The position numbers were made by a program, and so were the translations under genes. Below are positions 9,698 through 26,209 of a stretch of DNA of 64,000 nt, piece after piece (positions within the stretch are counted from its first letter, which is position 1; each line of letters starts with the position of its first letter). This DNA is from an uncultured Kingella sp. GTDB taxonomy: Bacteria; Pseudomonadota; Gammaproteobacteria; Burkholderiales; Neisseriaceae. Where the stretch lies: NCBI GenBank assembly GCA_963520365.1, contig CAUQQW010000002.1:37-64036 (forward strand). Reading direction: 5' to 3'. The notes beneath the pieces were generated by a model, which was not told where the DNA came from, did not search any database, and was given only the letters and a program-made list of their open reading frames with translations.

Positions 9698-11620
9698 TCA
9701 GTCGGTTGGTGCTATCTTGTCCTGTTGGCTGCTGTGGCTTTTGCCCGCTTTCCAGTCGCCCGCGCCGATGGCGGCGGGGTCGTATTGGTAGAACTCGTAG
9801 GCGGTGCGGGTGGCGTTGGGCAGGCGGTTCACGCGCAATACGGGGGCGCGGCTGCCCTGCACGACGCCTTTGCCGTCTTCGATGATGACGGCTTTGATGT
9901 CGGTGTCGCCCCGTTCGATCTGCCAGAAAACGGAATTGTAGCTTTTAAGCAGGAGCACGACGGGCTTGCCGCTGCTTGGCAGGGCGGTTTTCAGGCTGCT
10001 GTCGAGCTTGCTGCTTTCGTAAACTTCGGCGCGGATAACGGCGTAGTTCGGATTGTCGACAAGTGCTTGGGCTTCACTGTCGGGGGCGTTGAGCTGTTTG
10101 GGCTGGGGGTGCAGGGCGAAGCCGACGGTGTGCCAGTGGTTGATGTATTCCACTTCAAGCCGATGCGTGCCTTTGCTGAGTGGTAGGTCAAAGCGTTCGG
10201 CTTGGTTCGGATTGCTTTGCTCGTCTTTCACGGTGCGTTCGTGGACGATTTTGCCGTCCACGCGGATGCGCAGGTCCGCCCAGCTTGAATCGTATTGCAT
10301 ATCCATTAGGGTGTCGGTGGGCACGGTGATGTTGCCCACCCACAGGGCGGCGAATTTTTCGGCGTTGATGTTGTGGAAGGTTTCGTAGGGGTAGTTAATG
10401 GCGATGTGGGACACGGTTTCGCTGGCGACGGGCTTGCCGATGCTGTCTTGGGTGAAGTAATAGGCTTTGAAGCCTTGGGCGGGAACGGCTTCGTTCATCC
10501 GGGCAAACCAACTGGGTTTGTCATCGTCGGTTTTCAGGCTGCCTTGGGACGAGGTCAGGGGGTTACGGTCGAAGGTAACGGCTTCGCTGCCGCCGCACTG
10601 TGCCAAGGCTTTTTGGTGTTCGCTGTCGGTGCGTTGTTTGATTGCTTGCATTCGCTCGTTGGCAAACCACTCTTGTTTGAAATAGCGGCTGTGGTAGAAG
10701 TAATCCACGGGTTTGCCAAACAGGGTTTGCGACAGGTTTTGGATGGGTTCGTAGCTGGGCGTTTTGGTGTTGCAGGAGAGATTGATGCCGCCGATGCAAT
10801 GGCAGCCTGCGGTGAAATAGTTGGTGTCCGGCGGCGCGGTGTCAAGGCGGTAAACGGGGGCGTCGCTGCCGCTGATGGTGCCGATGGTAGGTGTGGCGAC
10901 GATGGCTTTGATGCGCGCGCCTTTTTCAGGCTGCATCACCACGTTCACCAGGTCGTAGGAATTGAGCACGATGATTTGCTCTTTGCTGTCGGCGGGAACG
11001 GGCAGGATGGCGTCGTATTCAAGGTTGCTGTCGATGGGAAAGCCACGCTCGTCGGAAGCGACTGTGTGGTAAACCGTGGCGAAGCGGACGATGTCTTTGC
11101 TTTCGGCTTTGATGTCGGCGGCAAGGGCTTCGGGTGTGCGAGCTTTTTCGCTGGCGGGCAGGAAATTGACGACAACCGAGCCGGCGTGCCACGAAGGTTC
11201 GTAATCCACGCTGACGCTGTGTTCGCCCTTAGACAGGGTGTGCTGCGGGTTGTGGGCGAGGTTTTTTCGGAAATCGAATTCCACATCGTCGATTTTCAGG
11301 CGCACGGGCGCGGCAGTTTGGATGATGACGGCTTCTTCCCGCGACAGGTTAATCTTGCCCTGCCAATGCAGTTGCAGGTTTTCGCCTTGGATTTCTTCGT
11401 ATCCGTAAACAAAGTTAAAGGCGATTTGCGGCACTTCGCCGCCGCTGCGGACGTTTTCAGGCTGCCTTTTATCGGCGTAGCTGAATTGGAACGGCCCGGT
11501 TCGGATAACGGGCGGACGGCTTTTAACGGGTGGACGGTTTTTTTCGCCGCACGATGCGGTAAACAAGACGGCGGCGAGGAGAATGGCGGCGAGGAGAATG
11601 GCGGAGAGCGGTGTTTTCAT
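9698..11620 (-). CDS. Large lipoprotein with two PA14-like modules
   Basis: Lipobox FTASC; FKAYYF...FAALWVGNI...RIRVDGKIV...LSKGTHRLEVEY resembles PA14, with a similar segment in the N-terminal half. Confidence 0.7.
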   Translation of the reverse strand: MKTPLSAILLAAILLAAVLFTASCGEKNRPPVKSRPPVIRTGPFQFSYADKRQPENVRSGGEVPQIAFNFVYGYEEIQGENLQLHWQGKINLSREEAVIIQTAAPVRLKIDDVEFDFRKNLAHNPQHTLSKGEHSVSVDYEPSWHAGSVVVNFLPASEKARTPEALAADIKAESKDIVRFATVYHTVASDERGFPIDSNLEYDAILPVPADSKEQIIVLNSYDLVNVVMQPEKGARIKAIVATPTIGTISGSDAPVYRLDTAPPDTNYFTAGCHCIGGINLSCNTKTPSYEPIQNLSQTLFGKPVDYFYHSRYFKQEWFANERMQAIKQRTDSEHQKALAQCGGSEAVTFDRNPLTSSQGSLKTDDDKPSWFARMNEAVPAQGFKAYYFTQDSIGKPVASETVSHIAINYPYETFHNINAEKFAALWVGNITVPTDTLMDMQYDSSWADLRIRVDGKIVHERTVKDEQSNPNQAERFDLPLSKGTHRLEVEYINHWHTVGFALHPQPKQLNAPDSEAQALVDNPNYAVIRAEVYESSKLDSSLKTALPSSGKPVVLLLKSYNSVFWQIERGDTDIKAVIIEDGKGVVQGSRAPVLRVNRLPNATRTAYEFYQYDPAAIGAGDWKAGKSHSSQQDKIAPTD

Positions 11621-13047: not shown

Positions 13048-14004
13048 ATGGCAAACAAAGTGAGCAATAAAGTGGTGGTGATTGGCACAGGCGCGGTGGG
13101 AGTGAGTTATGCTTATGCCGCGCTCAACCAAGGCATTGTGGACGAATTGGTGCTGATTGATATTAACGAAAAACGCGTGGAAGCCGAAGCCTATGATTTG
13201 AGCCATGGCGTGTTCAATGGTCCTACTTCAACCGTTGTTAAAGCAGGCAGCTATGCCGATTGTGCCGATGCCGACATCGTTACCATTTGCGCAGGCGTGC
13301 CACAAAAACCAGGCGAAACGCGCTTGCAATTGATTGATAACAACTTAAACGTGTTCAACAAAATTGTTGGCGAAGTGGTGAAAACAGGCTTTAAAGGCAT
13401 TTTCTTGCTGGCGGCTAACCCCGTGGACGTGTTGTCGTATGCCACTTACAAATTCTCAGGCTTCCCCAAAGAGCGCGTTATCGGCTCGGGCACGGTGTTG
13501 GACACCGCGCGTTTGTGCGACGAGTTGTCCAAAGAGTTCAACGTTGCGCCACACAACATCAACGCCTTTATGGTCGGCGAACACGGCGACAGCATTTTAG
13601 CCGCTTGGAGCACCGCCACCATCGCAGGGCAATCCATCAAAGCCTATTTTGATGCGCAACCCAATGGCAAAGAGCGCATGGAACAAATCCGCTACGATGT
13701 AATGCGCGCCGCCTACAAAATCATCGAAGGCAAAGGCGCAACCTACTACGGCATCGGCATGGGCTTGGCACGCATTACCCGCGCCATCTTGCGCAACGAA
13801 CGCGCCATTTTGCCGATTTCTGCATTGGTGGAAGGCGAATACGGCGAGCAAGATGTGTTCATCGGCACGCCTGCGGTAATCGGCAGCAGCGGCATTGTTC
13901 GCATCATTGAACAACCTTTGGATGCCGAAGAAAAACAAAAATTTGCCGATTCCGCTAACGTATTGCGTGGCTACCAAGAAAAAGTTCACGAATACTTGAA
14001 ATAA
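13048..14004 (+). CDS. ldh: NAD-dependent L-lactate dehydrogenase
   Basis: IGTGAVG, AGVPQKPGETRLQL, ANPVD, GSGTVLDTAR, GEHGDS, KGATYYGIG. Confidence 0.95.
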   Translation: MANKVSNKVVVIGTGAVGVSYAYAALNQGIVDELVLIDINEKRVEAEAYDLSHGVFNGPTSTVVKAGSYADCADADIVTICAGVPQKPGETRLQLIDNNLNVFNKIVGEVVKTGFKGIFLLAANPVDVLSYATYKFSGFPKERVIGSGTVLDTARLCDELSKEFNVAPHNINAFMVGEHGDSILAAWSTATIAGQSIKAYFDAQPNGKERMEQIRYDVMRAAYKIIEGKGATYYGIGMGLARITRAILRNERAILPISALVEGEYGEQDVFIGTPAVIGSSGIVRIIEQPLDAEEKQKFADSANVLRGYQEKVHEYLK

Positions 14005-14015
14005 TCAAAACACAA

Positions 14016-14046
14016 AAAACCGCTTGGGCGATACCAAGCGGTTTTC
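14016..14046 (+). terminator. Intrinsic terminator after ldh
   Basis: AACCGCTTGG-GCGATA-CCAAGCGGTT followed by Ts. Confidence 0.75.
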
Positions 14047-14059
14047 TTATTTTCAGGCT

Positions 14060-14212
14060 GAAACCTTTGCAAAACCTACAACCGATGGAACGTCGGCGAC
14101 TCGCCGACATTTTGATAAATCAGTAACACTCTGTTTAATCAGATATTTTTCAGTAAACTCCCGCCTTTTCGTTTTGGATTTCAGACTGCTGTTGGGGTTT
14201 TGCAAAGGTTTC
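14060..14212. mobile_element. MITE-like element with IS1106/IS5-like ends, containing a REP-like palindrome
   Basis: 17-bp terminal inverted repeat GAAACCTTTGCAAAACC ... GGTTTTGCAAAGGTTTC; no transposase. Confidence 0.65.
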
Positions 14213-14266
14213 AGGCTGCCTTTTTTCAGGCTGCTTTGATGCACAACAAAATAGCCAGCGACAATG

Positions 14267-15121
14267 CTATACACCAAACGTATTGCATTGGTTAATATCG
14301 CCCGTTTGCAAACCGCGTTGTAACCACTTTTTGCGCTCGGCAGAAGTGCCATGCGTGTAAGTATGCGGCACAGTATAGCCTTGCGCACGTTTTTGCAAAG
14401 TATCATCGCCCACCGCTTCCGCCGCAACATAAGCTTCTTCAATATCCCCATCTTCAAACAAACCATCTTTTTGCGCGTAATGCCCCCACACTCCTGCATA
14501 GCAATCCGCTTGCAATTCCAGTTTCACCGACAACGCATTGGCTTCTGTTTTGCTCACTTGCTGCTGCATACTGTGCACCTTACCAATCGTGCCCAACATG
14601 GTTTGCACATGATGTCCCACTTCATGCGCAATCACATAAGCAAACGCCGCGTCGCCTTCCGCGCCAAGCTGATTTTTCATCGTGTTGTAAAACGATAAAT
14701 CAATGTATAACTTGTTATCCGCAGGGCAATAAAATGGGCCTGCGCTGGCTTGCCCCGTGCCGCAGCCCGTTTGCGTAGAACCAGAATAGATGCGTAGCAC
14801 AGGCTCTTGATACGTTTTGCCCATTTTCTGGAAATACGCGCCCCATACTTTTTCCGTTTCACGCAATACAACCGCGCTCAGTTTATACAACTGCTGCTCT
14901 TGTTGAGAATATTGCGGACGCTGCGTTTGTTGCTGCTGCGTATTACCAAGCTGGTTCGCCCCACCAACCAAGCCACTCAAATCCACCCCATTATAAGCAC
15001 CAATCAGCAAAATAATGAAACCAATAATACCAAGTGGTTTGCCACCGCCCATGCCGCCCCCACCCGAGCTGCCGCGCGCGTCTTCAATATTGTTGCTGCC
15101 TTCCCTGTTTTGCCAACGCAT
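14267..15121 (-). CDS. Neutral zinc metallopeptidase, YpfJ family
   Basis: MRWQNREGSNNIEDARG; GPFYCPADNKLYIDL; AYVIAHEVGHHVQ; ELQADCYAG; THGTS. Confidence 0.92.
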   Translation of the reverse strand: MRWQNREGSNNIEDARGSSGGGGMGGGKPLGIIGFIILLIGAYNGVDLSGLVGGANQLGNTQQQQTQRPQYSQQEQQLYKLSAVVLRETEKVWGAYFQKMGKTYQEPVLRIYSGSTQTGCGTGQASAGPFYCPADNKLYIDLSFYNTMKNQLGAEGDAAFAYVIAHEVGHHVQTMLGTIGKVHSMQQQVSKTEANALSVKLELQADCYAGVWGHYAQKDGLFEDGDIEEAYVAAEAVGDDTLQKRAQGYTVPHTYTHGTSAERKKWLQRGLQTGDINQCNTFGV

Positions 15122-15178
15122 AAACACTCCATTCAAGAATAAACGAAAAGCCCAAACAAAAGTTTGGGCTTAAATATT

Positions 15179-15254
15179 TGGTGGCCAGAGGCAGGATCGA
15201 ACTGCCGACACACGGATTTTCAATCCGTTGCTCTACCGACTGAGCTATCTGGCC
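15179..15254 (-). tRNA. tRNA-Phe (GAA)
   Basis: GGCCAGATAGCTCAGTCGGTAGAGCAACGGATTGAAAATCCGTGTGTCGGCAGTTCGATCCTGCCTCTGGCCACCA; cloverleaf with encoded CCA. Confidence 0.97.
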
Positions 15255-15319
15255 AAGTAAGCTGCATATTAGAACACAATAAAACTAGGCTGTCAAACGA
15301 ATAAAGAAGCCAAACCTAA

Positions 15320-15685
15320 TTATTTCGTGATGTCCACAATTGCACGCGCTGCGCGACGCGCATCCAGCAGAATCAAGCCCAGTTTCGCACTTTCTTTGGC
15401 TGTTAAGCACAACACATTAGTGCCACCAGCCTGAATCAGCAAGGTGTAGCCCAGCTTGCCTTTAACAATAACTTGTTCCAATTCGCCGCAAGCCAATTCT
15501 TGCGTAGTGCGATTACCCAACGCCAACAATGCAGCAGACATAGCGCCAACGCGATCGGGGTCAATGTTGGCAGGTAAGAGATGCGCGATAGGCAAACCAT
15601 CGGTAGAAATAACGGCAGATGCAGTAATATCAACGGAAGAACTGTTTAAGTCGCTCAGTACGGAAGTTAAAAGTTGTTCATGCAT
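15320..15685 (-). CDS. Roadblock/LC7 (MglB-like) protein
   Basis: SAVISTDGLPIA...DRVGAMSAALLALG...GELEQVIVKGKLGY...LGLILLD. Confidence 0.9.
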   Translation of the reverse strand: MHEQLLTSVLSDLNSSSVDITASAVISTDGLPIAHLLPANIDPDRVGAMSAALLALGNRTTQELACGELEQVIVKGKLGYTLLIQAGGTNVLCLTAKESAKLGLILLDARRAARAIVDITK

Positions 15686-15708
15686 TTTATATTAGTCCAA
15701 TTCAAATT

Positions 15709-16368
15709 TTAAAAATCAACGCCCAAATTATTAGCTGCTTCAACCGTTTTATAAAGTGCGCGCACCAAAGTTACAAAGGCTTCTTTGTGTAATTGTGGTG
15801 TGCCACCTGTTACCAAAATGTATTTGGTTTCGTTTATATAGATGGGGAAGAAGGTTAATTCGCTTTGCCCTGTTGGGTCGCATAAACCCCATGCGTTTTG
15901 ATAAATGTTCAGATTATTCTTAATCAAAAGAGCATGGCGTTCAGACAAACGAATAGCTTCGCTGGCTAAAATAGCAACTTCTTCTGCTGCTTCATGGTTA
16001 AAACCAGAGTTGGCGAAATAGAAGCCATCATGGTCAATCAACAATGCTTTTTGGCTATCGGACAAGTGCGGCAATAAATTTGCCAAAGTATCATCTTGTA
16101 GCTCAAAGTTTTCTTCTGGCGTATCGCCACCATACAAAAATTCAAGACGTTGCAAGCGATAAAGCAAATTCAATGCCGATTCCACATCATGCGTTTCAGA
16201 CCATTCCAATAATTTTTCTTGGGTAATGGGTTGCTGACTATCTGCTCTTAAAATATTAGAGAGCAATGTGCGACTGGCACTCACACTTTTGTTGGCAATC
16301 GCATAGAATGCGCCAGCGGGTGTGATGTGTGGGTATAAATTTGTTTGTAATGAAAGAGTCGATTCCAT
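15709..16368 (-). CDS. Hypothetical protein with a probable C-terminal roadblock-like domain
   Basis: ALLIDHDGFYFANSGF..EEVAILASE resembles the roadblock beta-hairpin/helix; coupled to the GTPase gene (1-nt gap). Confidence 0.65.
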   Translation of the reverse strand: MESTLSLQTNLYPHITPAGAFYAIANKSVSASRTLLSNILRADSQQPITQEKLLEWSETHDVESALNLLYRLQRLEFLYGGDTPEENFELQDDTLANLLPHLSDSQKALLIDHDGFYFANSGFNHEAAEEVAILASEAIRLSERHALLIKNNLNIYQNAWGLCDPTGQSELTFFPIYINETKYILVTGGTPQLHKEAFVTLVRALYKTVEAANNLGVDF

Positions 16369-16369
16369 G

Positions 16370-16909
16370 TTACACCTCTAAACCTGGGTCAATTTGAAAG
16401 AGCATAGCCGTAACAAGTTGTTTTACATCTTCTTCGTTACGCGCATCAACTTCAAATACAGGCACATTGAAACCATTTTGTGCCAAGTATTTTTGGTAAA
16501 CATCAATACCAGGTACGGCGCGAATATCCATTTTGGTTACACCAACCACCAAGGGGGCGGTTTTCAGCAAATCTGCAAAAGAATCTAGAAAGAATTTCAA
16601 ATCTTTTAATGGGTTACCACGGGTATTATCCAGCAGCAAAATCAAGCCCATACTACCCTGGCTTAGAATGTCCCACATAAAGTCAAATCGTTCTTGCCCA
16701 GGTGTACCGTATAAATGGATTTTGGTATTTTCATCTAATTGAATTAAACCATAGTCCATGGCAACAGTAGTATAGCCTTTGCGTACGGCTGTCATATCGG
16801 ATGCGCTAGCATCTGTTTGGATGGGTGGTTCATCGGATAAGGCAGCGATGGCGGTTGTTTTGCCAACGCCTACGGGGCCTGTAAAGATGATTTTATTTTC
16901 TATCAGCAT
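16370..16909 (-). CDS. Small Ras-like GTPase, MglA/CvnD-like
   Basis: G1 GPVGVGKTT, TTVAMDYG, G3 YGTPGQERF, G4 TKMD, G5-like DAR. Confidence 0.92.
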   Translation of the reverse strand: MLIENKIIFTGPVGVGKTTAIAALSDEPPIQTDASASDMTAVRKGYTTVAMDYGLIQLDENTKIHLYGTPGQERFDFMWDILSQGSMGLILLLDNTRGNPLKDLKFFLDSFADLLKTAPLVVGVTKMDIRAVPGIDVYQKYLAQNGFNVPVFEVDARNEEDVKQLVTAMLFQIDPGLEV

Positions 16910-16925
16910 AGTAATCCCTCATTCA

Positions 16926-18059
16926 TTATTTATTCAGCAATTTTTTCATGAGACGGCTCAATAGACCGCCTGTTTTTTGCTGTGTATGTGCTTCGTTTGC
17001 GCGCGCAGCACGTATTTGTTCTGGACGTGGTGTTGCAGATGTGTTCACAGTTGCGCGAGTGGCAGATTGTGCACTTGGCGCTTCATTCACTTGTTGCGTA
17101 ATTTCCAAATAATCTGTCAGATACGTTGCGGCGATATAGTTCAAAATATCCGCCATATCCAAAGGCATCAATTTATAAAGCATATTTAAACTAACCGATG
17201 TTTTGGTTAAGAATGCTGATAAACGCATGGCTTCTGGCAAGGGCGTTAGACGCGTTAAATTGGGCCAGCTTTTTAATTTGAAAACAGTATTGGGATTGAT
17301 TGGATGCACCAGACGTCCGTTCGCTGTCCATAATGCTACTTGCCACATGGTAGATGTAACCGTTGCATTGGCGCGGTCTTGGATGTTGTTTTCATCTGGG
17401 ATGTTTTTGAGTTTGATATTGGGACGCTCTTGGCGGCATAAATCGCGCAGTTGCTCAGGAGGAACGGCAATCCACACGCGCTGCGTAGAAGGGAATATCG
17501 CCAAAATAGGCTTTTCATCAACCAAAAGAGCGGTATTGCGTTGATGCGCCAAAATTTCTCTGAATGAGCCCAAGATACCAACACGAGGATCAAAGCGAGG
17601 AATGGTTACTTCGCTGGAACGATTAGCCGAAGCTGAACGATTAGGTTGCGTTTGCGTGCTAACATTATGCGAAGGCGCTGCTGTTCCTGTGTTTGCCATA
17701 TTGGGGCGAACAACCCAAATGCCATTACCTTGCAATAGATTGCGCAGATTCAAAAAGAGTGAATCAAATTTAATGGGCTTGGGAAGATAGGGAGCTGTTA
17801 CAGCAGGTGGAGATTTTGAGAAAAACACCACAACGCTGCCTGAAAAGTCGTTTTTCGCTTTTTGCCAAGTCGCCAAACCATTTGCACCATCACCATCTAC
17901 GATAACCAGCTCAGGTTTTTCACCAGAATTTGCGCTGATTACTTCGTAGTTGGTTGTGTTGTGCATTTTAAATGCCATCTTGAACATGGCTTGTTGCTGG
18001 TCGTCCATAGCTACAAACAACAACTTCACCGTTTTTACGTGGGGTAAGTCATGATTCAT
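16926..18059 (-). CDS. Receiver-like domain protein with uncharacterised C-terminal domain
   Basis: N-terminal REC-like fold (PELVIVDGDG...YLPKPI), low-complexity linker, WPNLTRL segment, C-terminal LLSRLMKKLL amphipathic helix. Confidence 0.65.
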   Translation of the reverse strand: MNHDLPHVKTVKLLFVAMDDQQQAMFKMAFKMHNTTNYEVISANSGEKPELVIVDGDGANGLATWQKAKNDFSGSVVVFFSKSPPAVTAPYLPKPIKFDSLFLNLRNLLQGNGIWVVRPNMANTGTAAPSHNVSTQTQPNRSASANRSSEVTIPRFDPRVGILGSFREILAHQRNTALLVDEKPILAIFPSTQRVWIAVPPEQLRDLCRQERPNIKLKNIPDENNIQDRANATVTSTMWQVALWTANGRLVHPINPNTVFKLKSWPNLTRLTPLPEAMRLSAFLTKTSVSLNMLYKLMPLDMADILNYIAATYLTDYLEITQQVNEAPSAQSATRATVNTSATPRPEQIRAARANEAHTQQKTGGLLSRLMKKLLNK

Positions 18060-18063
18060 TTTA

Positions 18064-19488
18064 TTAATGTCCGAATGAGCCGTTACTAAATCGTTGTAGC
18101 AGTTGGCTCATTGCCAACACTACTTCCTCAGGTAATGTTTGAACTTTTGGACGCAATTCTTGCAAGAGATTTTCCAAGCGAGTCCATTCTTCTGCGCGTT
18201 CATACAAGTCAAACAAGGTGATATAAAGCTGTGATTCTTGCGGATACTCAACAATGGCGTTTTCCAGCAATTCCATTGAGTTGTCTAATTGACCATACAT
18301 CAACAAGGATTCTGCTTCTTTCAAGATGCGCTCAGTAGCGGTTCTTGGTTCGGCATTGACATCTGCTTTTTCGGTTACAAGAGCTTGGTAACGCGCTTTT
18401 TTCAGGCTGCCTCCATCAATCCATCCTTGTTGGATGCCCAAATCGCGTAAAGCAGCTTCATTGGGTGCGGCTTCTAGGCGGTCAAACACGGGGTGTTGTC
18501 CTAATGTATAACCCCAGCCAAGCATGCGTTCTTTCACTTGGCGGCCATATTGTCCTAAGCTGTAATATAGATTCCACAAATGTCCTGCGAAACCGTTGAT
18601 ATTTTTGGCGCGATAATCCAGCGATAACGCATCAATCAACAAAGAAGCAGGTTTATCTGATTTGCGGATGGCTTTATTCATGTATTTAACCGCTGCATCG
18701 TAGCTTAAAACGTTTTTCAATAGTTTTACGCTTTGCTCGGGTTCCATAAATGCCAATACCGCACCTTTTTCATCAGTGCTTACGCCTGAAATCACGCCGC
18801 GCCCAGCAACCAAAGGTTTGTGTGGTCGTTTTTTCTCGGTTTCTGCTTCTTTTTTCTTGCTGCGAACAGGTTGAACGGGTTTGGCTTCTTCCAAGCCCAA
18901 ACCTGTTTTTTCGCCAATCTCTTCGGCGGTTTTCTTAACGCTCCAGCCCAGTTTGTTTTCAGCCAATACGCGCAAACCTAGGTGATTTTCGTCAATCGCC
19001 AAGCCTTCTTTAACAAATTGCGTAATTTGTTCTTCAGAAAGCGTGTCTTGATATTGCGTTAAGGCTTCAGTGGCGGCATCAACATTTTTGGCTTGTAGCC
19101 ATAGTTCAACAAGTTCGCCAGCCAGTTCGGGGTCGCGTTTAGGCGTTTTAGCAAGGTAGGCAGAAAGTGATTCCGCGGCTTTGTCAAAATAACCGAATTG
19201 TTTGTATACATTGAACTCGGTAAGCGCGTCCACGTCTTGCACGGAAACTTTGGTGTCGTCCACAACATTGGTTGTGGCAACGGTGTCCCAATCCATGTTG
19301 TCGTGTTCCGTGGTTTCTGCCGAATCGTCGTCTTCGTCATCCGCCTCTGCGTGGCGGCTGCTGCGTGCGCTGCTTGATTTTCTGCCTTTCTTGTCTGCTT
19401 GCGGTTTTTGCTTGCCTTTCAAGAAAACGATGCCAAGCACCGCCAATACTGCCACGGCAATAATACCGAGCATTATTGGATCATCCAT
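18064..19488 (-). CDS. Membrane-anchored TPR protein with FimV-like motifs
   Basis: N-terminal TM helix, acidic linker, VDALTEFNVYKQFGYFDKAAESL and ILKEAESLLMYGQLDNSMELLE resemble FimV cytoplasmic TPR motifs. Confidence 0.65.
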   Translation of the reverse strand: MDDPIMLGIIAVAVLAVLGIVFLKGKQKPQADKKGRKSSSARSSRHAEADDEDDDSAETTEHDNMDWDTVATTNVVDDTKVSVQDVDALTEFNVYKQFGYFDKAAESLSAYLAKTPKRDPELAGELVELWLQAKNVDAATEALTQYQDTLSEEQITQFVKEGLAIDENHLGLRVLAENKLGWSVKKTAEEIGEKTGLGLEEAKPVQPVRSKKKEAETEKKRPHKPLVAGRGVISGVSTDEKGAVLAFMEPEQSVKLLKNVLSYDAAVKYMNKAIRKSDKPASLLIDALSLDYRAKNINGFAGHLWNLYYSLGQYGRQVKERMLGWGYTLGQHPVFDRLEAAPNEAALRDLGIQQGWIDGGSLKKARYQALVTEKADVNAEPRTATERILKEAESLLMYGQLDNSMELLENAIVEYPQESQLYITLFDLYERAEEWTRLENLLQELRPKVQTLPEEVVLAMSQLLQRFSNGSFGH

Positions 19489-19679
19489 AGCGACTCCTTG
19501 CTTCTAATTTTAATTTTAAGTAAAAATTCATCCCCGCTAATAGCAGGGAAACTGATACACTTTAACAGATAACGCCTTGCAGCTGCAATATTTTCACGTT
19601 TGTTCTGTTTAGCTGTTGTAATTTTATCATGATTTTATGTATTCTCACGTTTTCGCCTTTTTAATAGGAAAACTTAACC

Positions 19680-20012
19680 ATGATGCTAAAACGATTGCGC
19701 TGTTGGCAGCCAGAAGCTAGCGAAGAGCAGCTATCTGCGTTTATTCAAGAACATGGGATGTTGTTAGAGCTGCTGGATGAGAGCTGGCAAAAGTTTGTAA
19801 AACAGCGCGCGGAGCTTTTTCAGGCTGCCGAACCTGTTTACGAAAGCCATTATGCTGAAGGTTTTTCAGTGGATGATTTGCGCCACGAGCCTGTTAGCAA
19901 TGCGGAATTGATGGCGTTTTTGAATACGTTTGACCGTGAGCGTACCCATAATGATCGCCCCTTTGGCGACCATGTTGAATACACGGAACAAGATTGGGAA
20001 ATTGAAGAATAG
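19680..20012 (+). CDS. Hypothetical acidic protein
   Basis: 110-aa ORF with AGGA RBS, divergent from the GTPase operon. Confidence 0.55.
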   Translation: MMLKRLRCWQPEASEEQLSAFIQEHGMLLELLDESWQKFVKQRAELFQAAEPVYESHYAEGFSVDDLRHEPVSNAELMAFLNTFDRERTHNDRPFGDHVEYTEQDWEIEE

Positions 20013-20140
20013 TTTTTAGGCTGCCCAAGTTAGTTTTTATCGCTGCGCTGGTTTTGTTTGGCGCAGCATTGCAACCGTTTTCAGGCTGCCTCACCCCAAA
20101 GGCAGCCTGAAAATAATTTACTCACATTAGGAGACAAACC

Positions 20141-21052
20141 ATGACCACATTAAGCAAACTCACACTCGCCAGCGCAATCGCCTTTGCCTTGGCGGCTTGC
20201 GGACAAGGTGGCAACTCTGCGCCTGCTTCATCCGCATCAGGCTCAGCCGCGCCTGCCGCAGAAAAAAGAGAAATCAAATTTGGCACTACGCCTGGCGATT
20301 TCGGCACGATGGTTACCGATAAAATCAAACCCATGCTGGAAAAACAGGGCTACAAAGTTACGCTCACCGAATTCCCCGATTATGTTACGCCAAACAAAGC
20401 ACTTGCCGAAGGCGCGATTGACATCAACGTTTTCCAGCACAAGCCTTATTTGGATGGCTTTAAAGCCGAGCACAATTTGGATTTAACCGAAGTGTTCCAA
20501 GTGCCGACTGCGCCTTTGGGCTTGTATTCAGGCAAACTAACGGCGATTGATCAAGTTAAAAACGGCAGCACTGTTTCTGTGCCTGATGATCCGTCTAACT
20601 TTGCCCGCGCTTTGGTGATGTTGAACGAATTGGGCTGGATTAAGTTGAAAGACAATATTGACCCGCTCAAAGCATCCAAAGCCGACATTGCGGAAAATAC
20701 TAAGAATATTAAATTAGTAGAAATGGAAGCGGCGAACTTGCCGCGCAGTCGTCAAGATGTTGATTTTGCTATTGTAAATGGCAACTACGCTGTTTCAAGC
20801 GGTATGAATTTAACCGAAGCCTTGTTCCAAGAGCCTAGCTTCGCTTATGTGAACTGGTCTGCCGTGCGCACGGCTGATAAAGACAGCAAATGGGTGCAAG
20901 ATGTAACCGCTGCTTACAATTCAGACGAATTCAAACAATATGCAGCGCAACGTTTTGCTGGTTACAAATACCCTGCCGTTTGGGGTGATAACGCCGCGCA
21001 AAATGCCATGAAAGAAGCCTCTGCTGCTTCTGCTGCATCAGCCGCTAAATAA
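20141..21052 (+). CDS. metQ: MetQ/NlpA family ABC substrate-binding lipoprotein
   Basis: Lipobox LAAC; DYVTPNKALAEGAIDINVFQHKPYL; PDDPSNFARAL; VNGNYA. Confidence 0.9.
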   Translation: MTTLSKLTLASAIAFALAACGQGGNSAPASSASGSAAPAAEKREIKFGTTPGDFGTMVTDKIKPMLEKQGYKVTLTEFPDYVTPNKALAEGAIDINVFQHKPYLDGFKAEHNLDLTEVFQVPTAPLGLYSGKLTAIDQVKNGSTVSVPDDPSNFARALVMLNELGWIKLKDNIDPLKASKADIAENTKNIKLVEMEAANLPRSRQDVDFAIVNGNYAVSSGMNLTEALFQEPSFAYVNWSAVRTADKDSKWVQDVTAAYNSDEFKQYAAQRFAGYKYPAVWGDNAAQNAMKEASAASAASAAK

Positions 21053-21199
21053 TCGGCACAATCCATTTTCAGGCTGCCTCTGTTGTTTAGATGCAGCCTG
21101 AAAAACCATCATTACACATACACACGATTTGTTAATTCAGCTTGACACTTCTTCGCGATTTGATTACATTTCGCCGCTGTGAAACGCAATGGGAAAAGT

Positions 21200-22681
<1,482 letters not shown>

Positions 22682-22729
22682 TAAACGCGACCGATTTGTT
22701 TGATTAACCCCTACAAGAGGGCAGGTAAA

Positions 22730-23200
22730 GTGAATTTAAATGCAACCTTAATTGCGCAAGTCATTGTCTTTTTGCTTTTATGTTGGTTTACCATGAAATT
22801 TGTGTGGCCGCCGATTGCAAAAGCATTGGATGAACGCGCTGATAAAATCGCCGAGGGCTTGGCTGCTGCTGAGCGCGGAAAAAGCGATTTTGAGCAGGCT
22901 GAAAAGAAAGTTGCAGAGCTCTTAACCGAAGGTCGCAATCAAGTCTCTGAAATCGTAGCCAACGCAGAAAAGCGTGCTGCACAAATTGTGGAAGATGCCA
23001 AAGCGCAAGCCCTAACCGAAGCAGCAAATATCACAGAGCAAGCAAAAGCAAACGCTGAGCAAGAAATCAATCGTGCGCGCGAAGCATTGCGCGAGCAGGT
23101 GGCTGCTTTGGCTGTTAAAGGTGCTGAATCTATTTTGCGTCGCGAAGTGGATGAGAAACAGCATGCTCAAATGTTGGGTGCCTTAAAACAGGAGCTGTAA
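22730..23200 (+). CDS. atpF: ATP synthase F0 subunit b (GTG start)
   Basis: NLNATLIAQ...[26 protein letters not shown]. Confidence 0.96.
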
Positions 23201-23204
23201 CCTT

Positions 23205-23753
23205 ATGATAGAGTATGCAACTGTTGCTCGCCCTTATGCAAAAGCCGTGTTTGAATTGGCTCAAGAAAAAGGGCAATTTGAATTGTGGTTAAGCGGGTTA
23301 GAACAGCTGGCTTGGCTGGTTCAGCAACCCAAAGTAGCTAGCTTAATTGGTTCAGTTGATTTAAGCGATTCTGAAAAAGCATTGCAACTGATTAAATTGT
23401 TAACTGGTTGCGAGGCAGTGAAAAACGCAGAGTTTAAGAATTTTATTGATGTGGTTGCAGTTGAAAGACGATTGACTGTGTTGCCTGAAATTTTTGAACA
23501 GTACAAAACGCTTTTTTTGGCAAAAAACAATACCAAACAAGCGATTGTTTACACTGCTTATGATGTTAAGAGCGAAGGTCAGCGTGCCAAAATCATTAGT
23601 GATTTAGAGCAGCATTTTCATGTTGGTTTGCAAGCCACATTTGTTACCGAACCAGAATTGATTGGTGGTGTAAAAGTGGTTGTGGGCGACAAAATATTAG
23701 ATTTGTCTATACAGGGTAAATTGCAAAATCTGTATACGACTCTGACAAATTAG
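23205..23753 (+). CDS. atpH: ATP synthase F1 subunit delta
   Basis: TVARPYAKAVF...PELIGGVKVVVGDKILDLS. Confidence 0.96.
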   Translation: MIEYATVARPYAKAVFELAQEKGQFELWLSGLEQLAWLVQQPKVASLIGSVDLSDSEKALQLIKLLTGCEAVKNAEFKNFIDVVAVERRLTVLPEIFEQYKTLFLAKNNTKQAIVYTAYDVKSEGQRAKIISDLEQHFHVGLQATFVTEPELIGGVKVVVGDKILDLSIQGKLQNLYTTLTN

Positions 23754-23762
23754 GAGGATTTC

Positions 23763-25310
23763 ATGCAGATTAATCCTGCTGAAATCAGCGATTTGCTGAA
23801 AGCTAAAATTGAAAAATTGAATACGCGCGCTGAAGAAAAAACGCGCGGTACAGTTATTTCAGTTACTGACGGTATCGTGCGCGTTTATGGCTTATCAGAT
23901 GTGATGCAAGGGGAAATGTTGGAGTTCCCCAATAATACATTTGGTTTGGCGATGAACTTGGAGCGCGATTCGGTTGGTGCTGTTGTACTGGGCGAATACG
24001 AGCACATCAAAGAAGGTGATGAAGTGAAATGCACAGGTCGCATCTTGGAAGTGCCGATTGGTCGCGGGTTGGTAGGTCGCGTTGTCAATGCGTTGGGTCA
24101 GCCCATTGATGGCAAAGGGCCGATTAACGCAACATTGACTGCGCCAATTGAAAAAATTGCACCAGGTGTGATTGCGCGTAAATCTGTTGATCAGCCTATG
24201 CAAACGGGTTTGAAAGCCATTGATTCCATGGTGCCTATTGGTCGTGGCCAGCGCGAATTGATTATTGGCGACCGTCAAACAGGTAAAACAGCTGTTGCGC
24301 TAGATGCGATTGTGAACCAAAAAGGTACCGGCGTTATTTGTATTTATGTGGCAGTAGGTCAAAAAGCATCTTCTGTTGCCAACGTTGTGCGTCAGTTGGA
24401 ACAACATGGCGCAATGGAACATACGATTGTTGTGGCGGCAACCGCATCGGAAGCAGCAGCATTGCAATACATCGCACCTTATTCAGGCTGCACCATGGGC
24501 GAATATTTCCGCGACCGTGGCGAAGATGCTTTGATTATTTATGATGATTTGTCTAAGCAAGCTGTTGCTTATCGCCAAATTTCTTTGCTGCTACGCCGTC
24601 CGCCTGGTCGCGAAGCTTACCCTGGCGATGTGTTCTATTTGCACTCTCGCTTATTGGAACGCGCTGCGCGTATCAATGCCGATGAGGTTGAAAAGCTGAC
24701 TAACGGCGAAGTAAAAGGCAAAACAGGTTCTTTAACTGCCTTGCCTATTATTGAAACGCAGGCGGGGGATGTATCTGCATTCGTGCCAACTAACGTAATT
24801 TCCATTACCGATGGTCAGATTTTCTTGGAAACTGACTTGTTTAACTCGGGTATTCGCCCCGCTATTAACGCAGGTATTTCGGTATCTCGTGTAGGCGGTG
24901 CAGCGCAAACTAAAGTCATCAAAAAACTGGGTGGCGGTATTCGTTTGGCATTGGCTCAATATCGTGAATTGGCGGCGTTTGCTCAATTTGCTTCCGATCT
25001 GGATGAGGCAACGCGTAAGCAGTTGCAACATGGCGAAGTGGTTACTGAATTGATGAAACAAAAACAATTCAATACATTGAGCACGGCAGAAATGGCTTTG
25101 ACTTTGTGGGCAATTAACAATGGCTCATATTCAGATGTTCCTGTTAGCAAAGCATTGGCTTTTGAGGCGGAATTTTTGAACTATGTTCGCACACAACATC
25201 CTGATACATTAAACACAATCAATGAATCAGGTGCGTTGTCTGACGAGAGCGAACAAGTTTTGGAAGGTGCAATGAAAACTTTCAAAACGTCATATAGCTA
25301 TGCAGCCTGA
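23763..25310 (+). CDS. atpA: ATP synthase F1 subunit alpha
   Basis: [33 protein letters not shown]. Confidence 0.99.
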
Positions 25311-25336
25311 AAATAGAGTAAAGAGGGAGTCTTAAA

Positions 25337-26209
25337 ATGGCAGTTGGAAAAGAGATTCTTACCAAAATTCGCAGTGTGCAAAATACGCAAAAAATCACAC
25401 GCGCGATGCAAATGGTATCAACCTCTAAAATGCGGAAGACTCAAGAACGTATGCGCCTTGCGCGTCCTTATGCGGATACGGTTCGTTTGGTAATGAATCG
25501 CTTGGCGCAAACGCAGGCAGATCATGGCATTAAATTGTTGGAAGAACATAAAATCAAACAACGTGTTGGCTTTATTTTGATTACAACAGACAAGGGTTTG
25601 TGCGGTGGTTTGAATGCGAACGTTCTGAAAAAATTCTTTGCACAGGTTCAGAAATATCAAGAGCAAAACATTGATGTTGAGATTGTATGTCTAGGCAGCA
25701 AGGGTTTGTTGGCTTGCCAGCGCGTCGGCTTGAATGTGATTGCTAGCGTAACCAATTTGGGCGACACGCCTAAAATGGAAACCATGCTGGGTGCATTAAC
25801 GGAAATTTTCCAGCGTTATGAGCAGCATCAATTGGATGTGATTCATTTGGTAAGCTCTCATTTTGTGAACACCATGAAACAAGAGCCACGCTCAGAGATT
25901 TTGTTGCCCATTGGCGAATCTGTGTTTCATGAAGATGATAGCAAGCAGCGAAATTGGGATTATCACTATGAACCAAGCCCAATTGCTGTGTTGGAATATT
26001 TGGTTAGACGCTATTTAGAGTCTGTGGTTTATGAGGCATTAAGCGAGAACATGGCGGCAGAACAAGCTGCGCGAATGGTGGCAATGAAAGCCGCTACCGA
26101 TAACGCAGGCAACGCCATTAAAGAGCTTCGCTTGGTGTACAACAAATCGCGTCAAGCAGCGATTACTACAGAATTGTCAGAAATTGTGGCAGGTGCAGCA
26201 GCCGTATAA
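25337..26209 (+). CDS. atpG: ATP synthase F1 subunit gamma
   Basis: TQKITRAMQMVS, DKGLCGGLN, RQAAITTELSEIVAGA. Confidence 0.98.
   Translation: MAVGKEILTKIRSVQNTQKITRAMQMVSTSKMRKTQERMRLARPYADTVRLVMNRLAQTQADHGIKLLEEHKIKQRVGFILITTDKGLCGGLNANVLKKFFAQVQKYQEQNIDVEIVCLGSKGLLACQRVGLNVIASVTNLGDTPKMETMLGALTEIFQRYEQHQLDVIHLVSSHFVNTMKQEPRSEILLPIGESVFHEDDSKQRNWDYHYEPSPIAVLEYLVRRYLESVVYEALSENMAAEQAARMVAMKAATDNAGNAIKELRLVYNKSRQAAITTELSEIVAGAAAV

Follow-up and report, generated by a model that had tools for sequence, protein, structure and literature searches.

What does a five-gene operon built around a small GTPase do in an uncultured Kingella sp. of the Neisseriaceae? The operon lies at positions 15320-19488 of a 64,000-nucleotide (nt) stretch of DNA (contig CAUQQW010000002.1, assembly GCA_963520365.1), here called the window in its whole length, and an initial annotation had read it as a self-contained module of MglA and roadblock type in a non-flagellated, twitching rod, with a FimV-like protein as its anchor. 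Our analysis shows that the operon is a real and widely conserved five-gene Group 3 MglA switch, of a kind catalogued in 2015. As for its function, the reading that we favor, and to which we give about an even chance, is that of a non-essential, membrane-tethered switch that tunes type IV pilus dynamics and is not needed to build pili.

Recomputing the coordinates gave the same five packed, co-oriented open reading frames (ORFs) on the minus strand, with the order and lengths first described and with intergenic gaps of 4, 16, 1 and 23 nt along the operon. Each of the five genes is single-copy in the source genome:

18064..19488, minus strand: putative TPR (tetratricopeptide repeat) scaffold gene, 474 aa; anchor, linker and TPR modules
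16926..18059, minus strand: Group 3 'DUF' receiver gene, 377 aa; receiver and alpha/beta-winged-helix-like domain
16370..16909, minus strand: MglA-family small GTPase gene of Group 3 type, 179 aa; ATP_bind_1
15709..16368, minus strand: RB1, divergent roadblock gene, 219 aa; weak Robl_LC7 score
15320..15685, minus strand: RB2, canonical roadblock/MglB gene, 121 aa; Robl_LC7 over cut-off

The GTPase had been credited with complete G1, G3 and G4 motifs, and this is borne out: it matches ATP_bind_1 (E 1e-14) and reads GPVGVGKT at G1, TT at G2, GTPGQ at G3, TKMD at G4 and DAR at G5. T47, T48 and G68-T-P-G-Q72 are kept in 54/54 homologues, as are D155 and R157 of G5 (A156 in 42/54), and the G4 lysine of the window GTPase is a lysine in 37/54. 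A threonine replacing the intrinsic arginine beside the G2 threonine, together with GTPGQ and DAR, is the published signature of Group 2 and Group 3 MglA proteins (PMC4316618), and on these diagnostic motifs and its gene neighbourhood the GTPase is assigned to Group 3. In the Group 3 table N. meningitidis and N. lactamica appear as 'DUF>MglA>MglB>MglB' with 178 aa, the MC58 entry being NMB0476 (Wuichet & Søgaard-Andersen 2015, PMC4316618), and the window GTPase is 78-80% identical to loci that match this tabulated Neisseria type. The Group 3 neighbourhood DUF>MglA>MglB(>MglB), with a receiver fold at the N-terminus of the DUF protein, is present here; the Group 3 systems of beta- and gammaproteobacteria thus share with the window four genes and their order, a GTPase of 178-179 aa, and the G2, G3 and G5 motifs. 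The published description and catalogue strings differ in that they include neither the upstream TPR gene nor the ODP, PAS and PhnD-fold accessories described below, and the window GTPase differs in having retained the G4 lysine. The arrangement has been described before, as four of the genes are tabulated as Group 3 (PMC4316618) and all five meningococcal deletions have been screened (PMC7606547). The literature that we searched, which took in few subscription journals, yielded no work on the mechanism of a Group 3 operon, no mention of the TPR gene as part of such an operon, and no link between ODP and the GTPase.

Both of the small roadblock-type proteins described initially were recovered, although at different strengths. 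RB2 is the sole protein in the source genome that scores over the Robl_LC7 cut-off, and its D29-G30 is kept in 48/48 homologues. RB1, in which an extra 88-aa N-terminal domain precedes a divergent roadblock, is a weak match (18 bits against a cut-off of 23), with 33/51 homologues matching at E <= 0.05.

Two better known relatives help to place the operon. The Group 1 system of Myxococcus xanthus (MglA/MglB/RomR with SgmX and FrzS) likewise combines a small GTPase, roadblocks, a receiver protein and a TPR protein, and it is tied to type IV pili; its MglA, however, has an intrinsic arginine finger and TVPGQ where the window GTPase has Thr47 and GTPGQ, and its partner genes are scattered and its role in motility essential, whereas the window genes form one operon. 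The actinobacterial conservon CvnABCD, with a Group 2 MglA, shares the GTPGQ/DAR motif class and a roadblock, and in both systems a gene with a winged-helix or, here, winged-helix-like domain immediately precedes that of the GTPase. The window operon has no histidine-kinase-like CvnA; it has a second roadblock, a receiver domain and an anchored TPR protein instead. The suggestion that a FimV-like protein replaces the conservon kinase as input finds nothing to show for it, the sensors linked to such operons being ODP or PAS; no kinase family matches the five genes, and none was found among the neighbour clusters checked.

How widely the module is kept bears directly on whether it is a unit. All five genes occur together in 73/80 named loci, the most distant being those of Methylomonas, Thiothrix and Acidithiobacillus, which agrees with the proposal of a self-contained, co-conserved MglA/roadblock module; the seven loci that fall short do so at a contig end (L071, L078, L100, L114, L122, L129) or through merged receiver and GTPase frames (L128). 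Within the Neisseriaceae the GTPase is found in 137/151 genomes and the TPR gene in 144/151 (six of the 144 have only a short paralogue, in one genus), and over most of the family the GTPase is 80-100% identical. In the clade of L046-L048 it evolves faster, with 78-80% identity to the window compared to 83-85% in ten other Neisseria. Relatives of the GTPase occur in 56/350 genomes of the class. The operon had also been presented as a feature of rods, which the distribution contradicts: 68/73 genomes of the largest genus have the GTPase, and loci of the coccoid species N. subflava, N. mucosa and N. sicca hold the whole operon, so that the named loci give no support to a link with cell shape. 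As a separate observation, additional paralogues of the GTPase (~50% identical) stand next to a histidine kinase in deep-branching Neisseriaceae (L039:4861-8391, L042:4485-8927, L043:3372-5613, L044:750-4321, L041:4869-7189), in some cases with an Hpt domain, a CheY-like receiver and CheX added, in a module that differs from the operon.

The 377-aa protein upstream of the GTPase has no Pfam match, and its description as receiver-like is supported by structure comparison. Residues 8-116 take up a receiver fold in the model (best Z 8.9, root-mean-square deviation (rmsd) 3.7, 100 residues aligned; in a second search Z 9.2, rmsd 2.7, 95 aligned). D55, K94 and P95 are invariant in 51/51 homologues and S/T81 is kept in 44/51, with the acidic pair shifted and partial (D19 in 34/51); because Asp55 and Lys94 are invariant, the domain need not be a pseudo-receiver. 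After a linker, residues 148-325 appear to form an alpha/beta and winged-helix-like domain, in which the modelled secondary structure at 277-322, helix-helix-helix-strand, fits a winged helix (the fold searches matched the receiver half, and the Atlas gave no match >=0.8 for the C-terminal half). The protein ends in an amphipathic, basic helix (366-377, moment 0.77) that lies within the top 2% of windows in 39/51 homologues.

The second domain is probably a distant relative of PATAN and CvnC proteins, the link to PATAN being weak. Searching 468 frames with its profile placed five genes directly upstream of other MglA-family GTPases at ranks one to five (a Ralstonia gene, two Deinococcus genes, a Thermus DUF4388 gene and a Micromonospora DUF742 gene), of which the first-ranked alone is significant; with E 0.03 and 0.12 the rank enrichment is weak. 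Comparison with PATAN/DUF4388 in hhalign was marginal (E 0.03-0.06), in a setting where the program was insensitive enough to miss even RB1 against RB2. The domain has no Pfam match to PF14332 (PATAN/DUF4388), and DUF4388 was found in 0/201 genomes of the class. PATAN/DUF4388 and DUF742 proteins beside MglA-family GTPases are thought to be adaptors.

This architecture raises the possibility that the output of the switch is transcriptional or nucleoid-directed, the GTPase controlling DNA binding by the receiver/winged-helix protein and perhaps by RB1. The Group 3 proposal itself predicts a receiver plus a winged helix for the DUF fold and a transcriptional output (PMC4316618), and the helices modelled at 277-322 and the invariant Asp55 and Lys94 are in keeping with it. 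In addition, a South-western blot showed DNA binding by NMB0478, the presumed RB1 orthologue (PMC2885667), yet such a blot involves denaturation and counts as weak evidence. In the loci searched the best relatives of the domain are the presumed adaptors beside MglA-family GTPases, the receiver protein ends in a membrane-type amphipathic helix, and the operon holds no cognate kinase. Taken together we consider a transcriptional output distinctly unlikely.

The TPR protein decides how far the comparison with FimV can be taken. Of the five proteins it has the sole hydrophobic helix (residues 5-23, Kyte-Doolittle 3.1; <=1.3 in the other four), predicted as a membrane anchor at residues 4-24 with an N-out/C-in orientation, and since this transmembrane (TM) helix begins at residue 5 there is no room for a periplasmic domain. 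A basic and then acidic linker follows, disordered in the structure model, and then module 1 (~80-190), a core helical repeat (~230-355) and module 3 (~384-468). TPR_19 scores above its cut-off, so that the TM, acidic and TPR parts described initially are all in place. The model has a pTM of 0.30 and its fold searches returned just generic TPR and helical repeats; the absence of FimV and SgmX structures from this listing excludes nothing. SgmX is a generic TPR match only (3/49 family members, best E 0.0012).

Of the claimed likeness to FimV one part stands and another does not. A profile of the inner TPR of FimV matches the 474-aa protein twice, at 80-155 and 388-451 (E 5e-8 and 9e-8), and matches 49/49 members of the TPR family compared to 0/1736 background ORFs, although the 19 FimV segments in this profile were chosen with our own family profile, a choice that favors a match. 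In the other direction, the operon family profile picks out, over the whole class, the TM-linker-TPR segment of long proteins, and 20/20 of the top-scoring long cross-matches that were fetched are FimV/HubP by the curated cut-off. The protein thus has the TM helix, acidic linker and inner TPR pair of the FimV type, and by these profile comparisons modules 1 and 3 are homologous to the inner cytoplasmic TPR pair of FimV. FimV/HubP/TspA proteins also have a LysM/core region and the TIGR03504 domain; the window protein, half the length, has neither. FimV_core (TIGR03505) gave no match in it and is not among the 25 families shown for the 49 members, and FimV_Cterm (TIGR03504) gave none either, with 2/49 members matching at a best E of 0.02. 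Judged on its domains the operon TPR protein is therefore not FimV, despite two copies of FimV's inner TPR module.

The idea that this protein localises the switch in the manner of FimV fails on the same ground. Septal targeting of FimV needs its LysM motif (bioRxiv 10.1101/116954), and because the TPR protein is without a periplasmic LysM/core region, the part that takes FimV homologues to septum or pole, it cannot localise in FimV's way; many gammaproteobacterial versions also have no anchor. All 15 aligned gammaproteobacterial members are short (232-273 aa) and have no TM helix, which indicates that the C-terminal half is the conserved core and the anchor an add-on. A separate TspA/FimV-like gene is present in the genome (952 aa, weak FimV_core match, TM helix after the periplasmic part). 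Its product (G000:C84, L131:970 onward) has no significant FimV inner-TPR match where the operon protein has two, so the FimV modules are possibly split between the two genes. We also observed stand-alone proteins of ~200 aa with the TM helix and first TPR module only (L035:5011-5616, L036:4909-5535, L037:4666-5352, L038:4415-5041), which persist even in reduced genomes without the GTPase. TfpC (NGO0783 of N. gonorrhoeae), which stabilises pili and shares an N-terminal TM helix, was rejected as the identity of the TPR gene: as its paper describes it, TfpC is a 147-aa periplasmic coiled-coil protein encoded by a separate gene (PMC7593972).

In relatives of the operon, sensor genes adjoin it. 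Among loci L090-L130, 12/17 of the long-form loci with 1.5 kb of flank or more have an ODP gene immediately upstream, and 12/15 of the short-form loci have, immediately downstream, a PAS gene and after it a PhnD-fold gene; the two sensors never occur in one locus. ODP senses oxygen and iron. Neither was found in the 39 loci L051-L089, and the crown Neisseriaceae have neither sensor gene at the operon. ODP occurs in 13/151 Neisseriaceae genomes, adjoining the operon in 8, and was not found in the source genome. Some loci also have extra PhnD-fold genes between or after the roadblock genes (L122:2553-3797, L127:8102-8566, L106:7335-8084), and in L122 and L127 a ~150-aa gene without known function stands between or after the two roadblock genes.

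One could take these neighbours to mean that the operon is an oxygen or redox switch acting on something other than pili, such as the envelope, division, aggregation or a second messenger, in which case the co-occurrence with pilus motors given below would reflect shared lifestyle and genome size. The regular placement of ODP upstream and PAS downstream, never both, is what such a switch would lead one to see, as is an operon on a Thermus brockianus plasmid (L157:2845-7369) with DUF4388, an MglA-family GTPase, two protoglobin genes, a roadblock and an EAL protein, which is a parallel pairing of an MglA-type switch with gas sensors; the meningococcal screens, which gave no pilus phenotype, also agree. 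Yet the GTPase stays highly identical over most of a family in which ODP is rare, and the FimV-type TPRs and a Snodgrassella phenotype point toward pili. We regard a redox switch with a non-pilus output as rather unlikely.

What, then, ties the switch to pili? The source genome, 92% complete, carries type IV pilus genes and has no match for flagellin, CheW or MCP, in line with the initial reading as non-flagellated and twitching; no Pil-Chp components were found in it. A single PilT-family motor is left in 11/14 GTPase-negative Neisseriaceae compared to 0/26 hand-picked carriers, and pilM was not found in 4/14 of the negatives and is split in a fifth. Across the class, at least two PilT-family genes are present in 24/24 genomes with strong GTPase and TPR matches (the two genes lie within 3 kb in 22/24) and in 31/56 controls, the latter being GTPase-negative genomes G151-G215 minus three small genomes, one unpublished and 11 more. 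In Snodgrassella a point allele in an orphan mglB alters spreading on 0.5% soft agar, and three mglB genes are all beneficial in gut transposon sequencing according to the authors (PMC11112851). In meningococcus NMB0478, which has no TM helix and was taken as the RB1 orthologue from a primer read by eye, was recovered in the inner-membrane fraction (PMC2885667).

Several observations weigh against this link. No pilus gene family recurs among the neighbours of the 80 loci, whose clusters are identified in part only. Of the GTPase-negative Neisseriaceae 6/14 are reduced genomes of 1.2-1.8 Mb in which many genes are gone, and pilM also has no match in three GTPase-positive drafts and is split in one. 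With controls limited to genomes of at least 2.4 Mb the class comparison becomes 24/24 against 24/29 (Fisher p 0.056), among kin that are not independent. pilQ is intact in 5/5 GTPase-negative genomes tested, so that these genomes look like ones with reduced, not absent, pili, and the idea that genomes without the operon have lost their pili completely is rejected. The orphan mglB of the Snodgrassella allele has no counterpart in the source genome. Single deletions of NMV_0522-0526 in N. meningitidis 8013 were all aggregation-positive and twitching-positive, in a qualitative screen in which a pilU deletion scored the same (PMC7606547); we equated these genes with the operon on their order and lengths and on bioC lying upstream, with L046 as the reference, and not on sequence. 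The NMB0478 null had wild-type pili and was competent (PMC2885667). Finally, the operon is decaying in places: in a named N. gonorrhoeae record the frames for the TPR protein, receiver protein, GTPase and RB1 are all fragmented and the ORF sizes equal those in G125, although this is a model species for twitching, and decay is also seen in G104 (truncated GTPase), G053 (an IS200/IS605 element inside the receiver gene) and G145 (a remnant). As an aside on records of this species, a 2.17-Mb N. gonorrhoeae entry filed as a plasmid (L153, NZ_CP119140.1) looks chromosomal.

The same observations bear on a stronger version, in which the operon would be a master polarity oscillator like that of Myxococcus, with a FimV equivalent holding it at the pole, and polar piliation would depend on it. 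The protein types are the same (GTPase, two roadblocks, receiver, TPR), and with no Pil-Chp found in the genome no known polarity controller is present. However, the anchor has neither LysM/core nor FimV_Cterm and a separate TspA/FimV gene exists, the catalytic motifs are unlike those of Group 1, the meningococcal deletions were silent, and the operon is retained in cocci and broken in gonococcus. We find such an oscillator very improbable.

We return to the tuning of pilus dynamics by a non-essential switch. Domain content, five-gene order and co-occurrence are observed, and the interactions between the proteins are all what we infer from them. As cells move over a surface, the switch would set the place or the frequency of pilus extension and retraction. 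The TPR protein, probably held in the inner membrane by its anchor and with its TPRs facing the cytoplasm, may serve as scaffold or effector, as SgmX does for MglA; in Myxococcus both MglA and the pseudo-receiver FrzS are bound by the TPRs of SgmX (PMC11580455). The receiver protein may dock on the membrane by its basic amphipathic tail, with the state of Asp55 gating the switch, and its winged-helix half could act as exchange factor or adaptor, as proposed for the CvnC-type gene in the same position. The conservon protein MfpC has been reported as a guanine nucleotide exchange factor (PMC11343762) and may be the counterpart of this half. The GTPase has no intrinsic arginine finger and would rely on the roadblock proteins for turnover, either on RB2 alone or on RB2 together with RB1. 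The ancestral input may have been a sensor of oxygen and iron or of redox state (ODP or a PAS protein of Aer type) that was lost in the crown Neisseriaceae, and in the source genome the switch would respond to some other external input or to none. Least certain is how the switch acts on the pilus motors.

A bolder version would see in the five proteins a polarity circuit for type IV pili that is gated by oxygen or redox state and works without Pil-Chp, with FimV's inner TPR recruited as scaffold and ODP or PAS as sensor. It would provide aerotaxis by twitching for non-flagellated beta- and gammaproteobacteria, would have been kept by oral Neisseriaceae as their sole pilus steering after sensor loss, and would be decaying in gonococcus. 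As a whole we think this unlikely.

The surroundings of the operon are simpler to describe. On the 3' side, starting 65 nt downstream, lie:

15179..15254, minus strand: tRNA-Phe(GAA)
15171-15148, minus strand: terminator-like hairpin after the tRNA, from a promoter/terminator scan at shuffle level

The scan found no more sites in the window than in shuffles; the tRNA and hairpin form the 3' boundary of the operon and are outside the conserved module. Beyond the 5' end a divergent gene starts at 19680, a 110-aa ORF (19680-20012) without a family that is kept beside the operon in 7 Kingella loci only. In meningococcus the operon mRNA is expressed and Hfq-bound (PMC5449619), and NMB0475, probably the TPR gene, goes up without Hfq (PMC5458458). 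The nearest named GTPases, 99-100% identical, sit in Kingella assemblies, and the source genome has 3541 copies of the Kingella uptake sequence. The database names '23S rRNA methyltransferase' and 'alpha-glucan phosphorylase' attached to the operon were rejected, as no such family matches; a genuine methyltransferase gene does adjoin the operon upstream in many Neisseria. Window positions 14000-26000, with the operon and ATP synthase genes, have 43-46% GC compared to a genome mean of 53%, and because the stretch spans core genes it is probably not a recent transfer. Elsewhere, 9698-11620 encodes a 640-aa lipoprotein-like ORF with a weak CBM60 match only, in surroundings of 57% GC.

Relative to the catalogued system, which our results refine, what is new is the fifth conserved gene with FimV-type TPRs, the swap and loss of sensors, the co-loss with a second retraction motor, and the decay in gonococcus. 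Nothing that would control where pili are placed or in which direction they work was found in the source genome (no CheW or MCP match), and for the large Group 3 class of MglA the literature searched yielded no biochemical or cell-biological work. What Group 3 GTPases control is directly testable, since the locus is single-copy and highly conserved in tractable commensals and the meningococcal deletions already exist.

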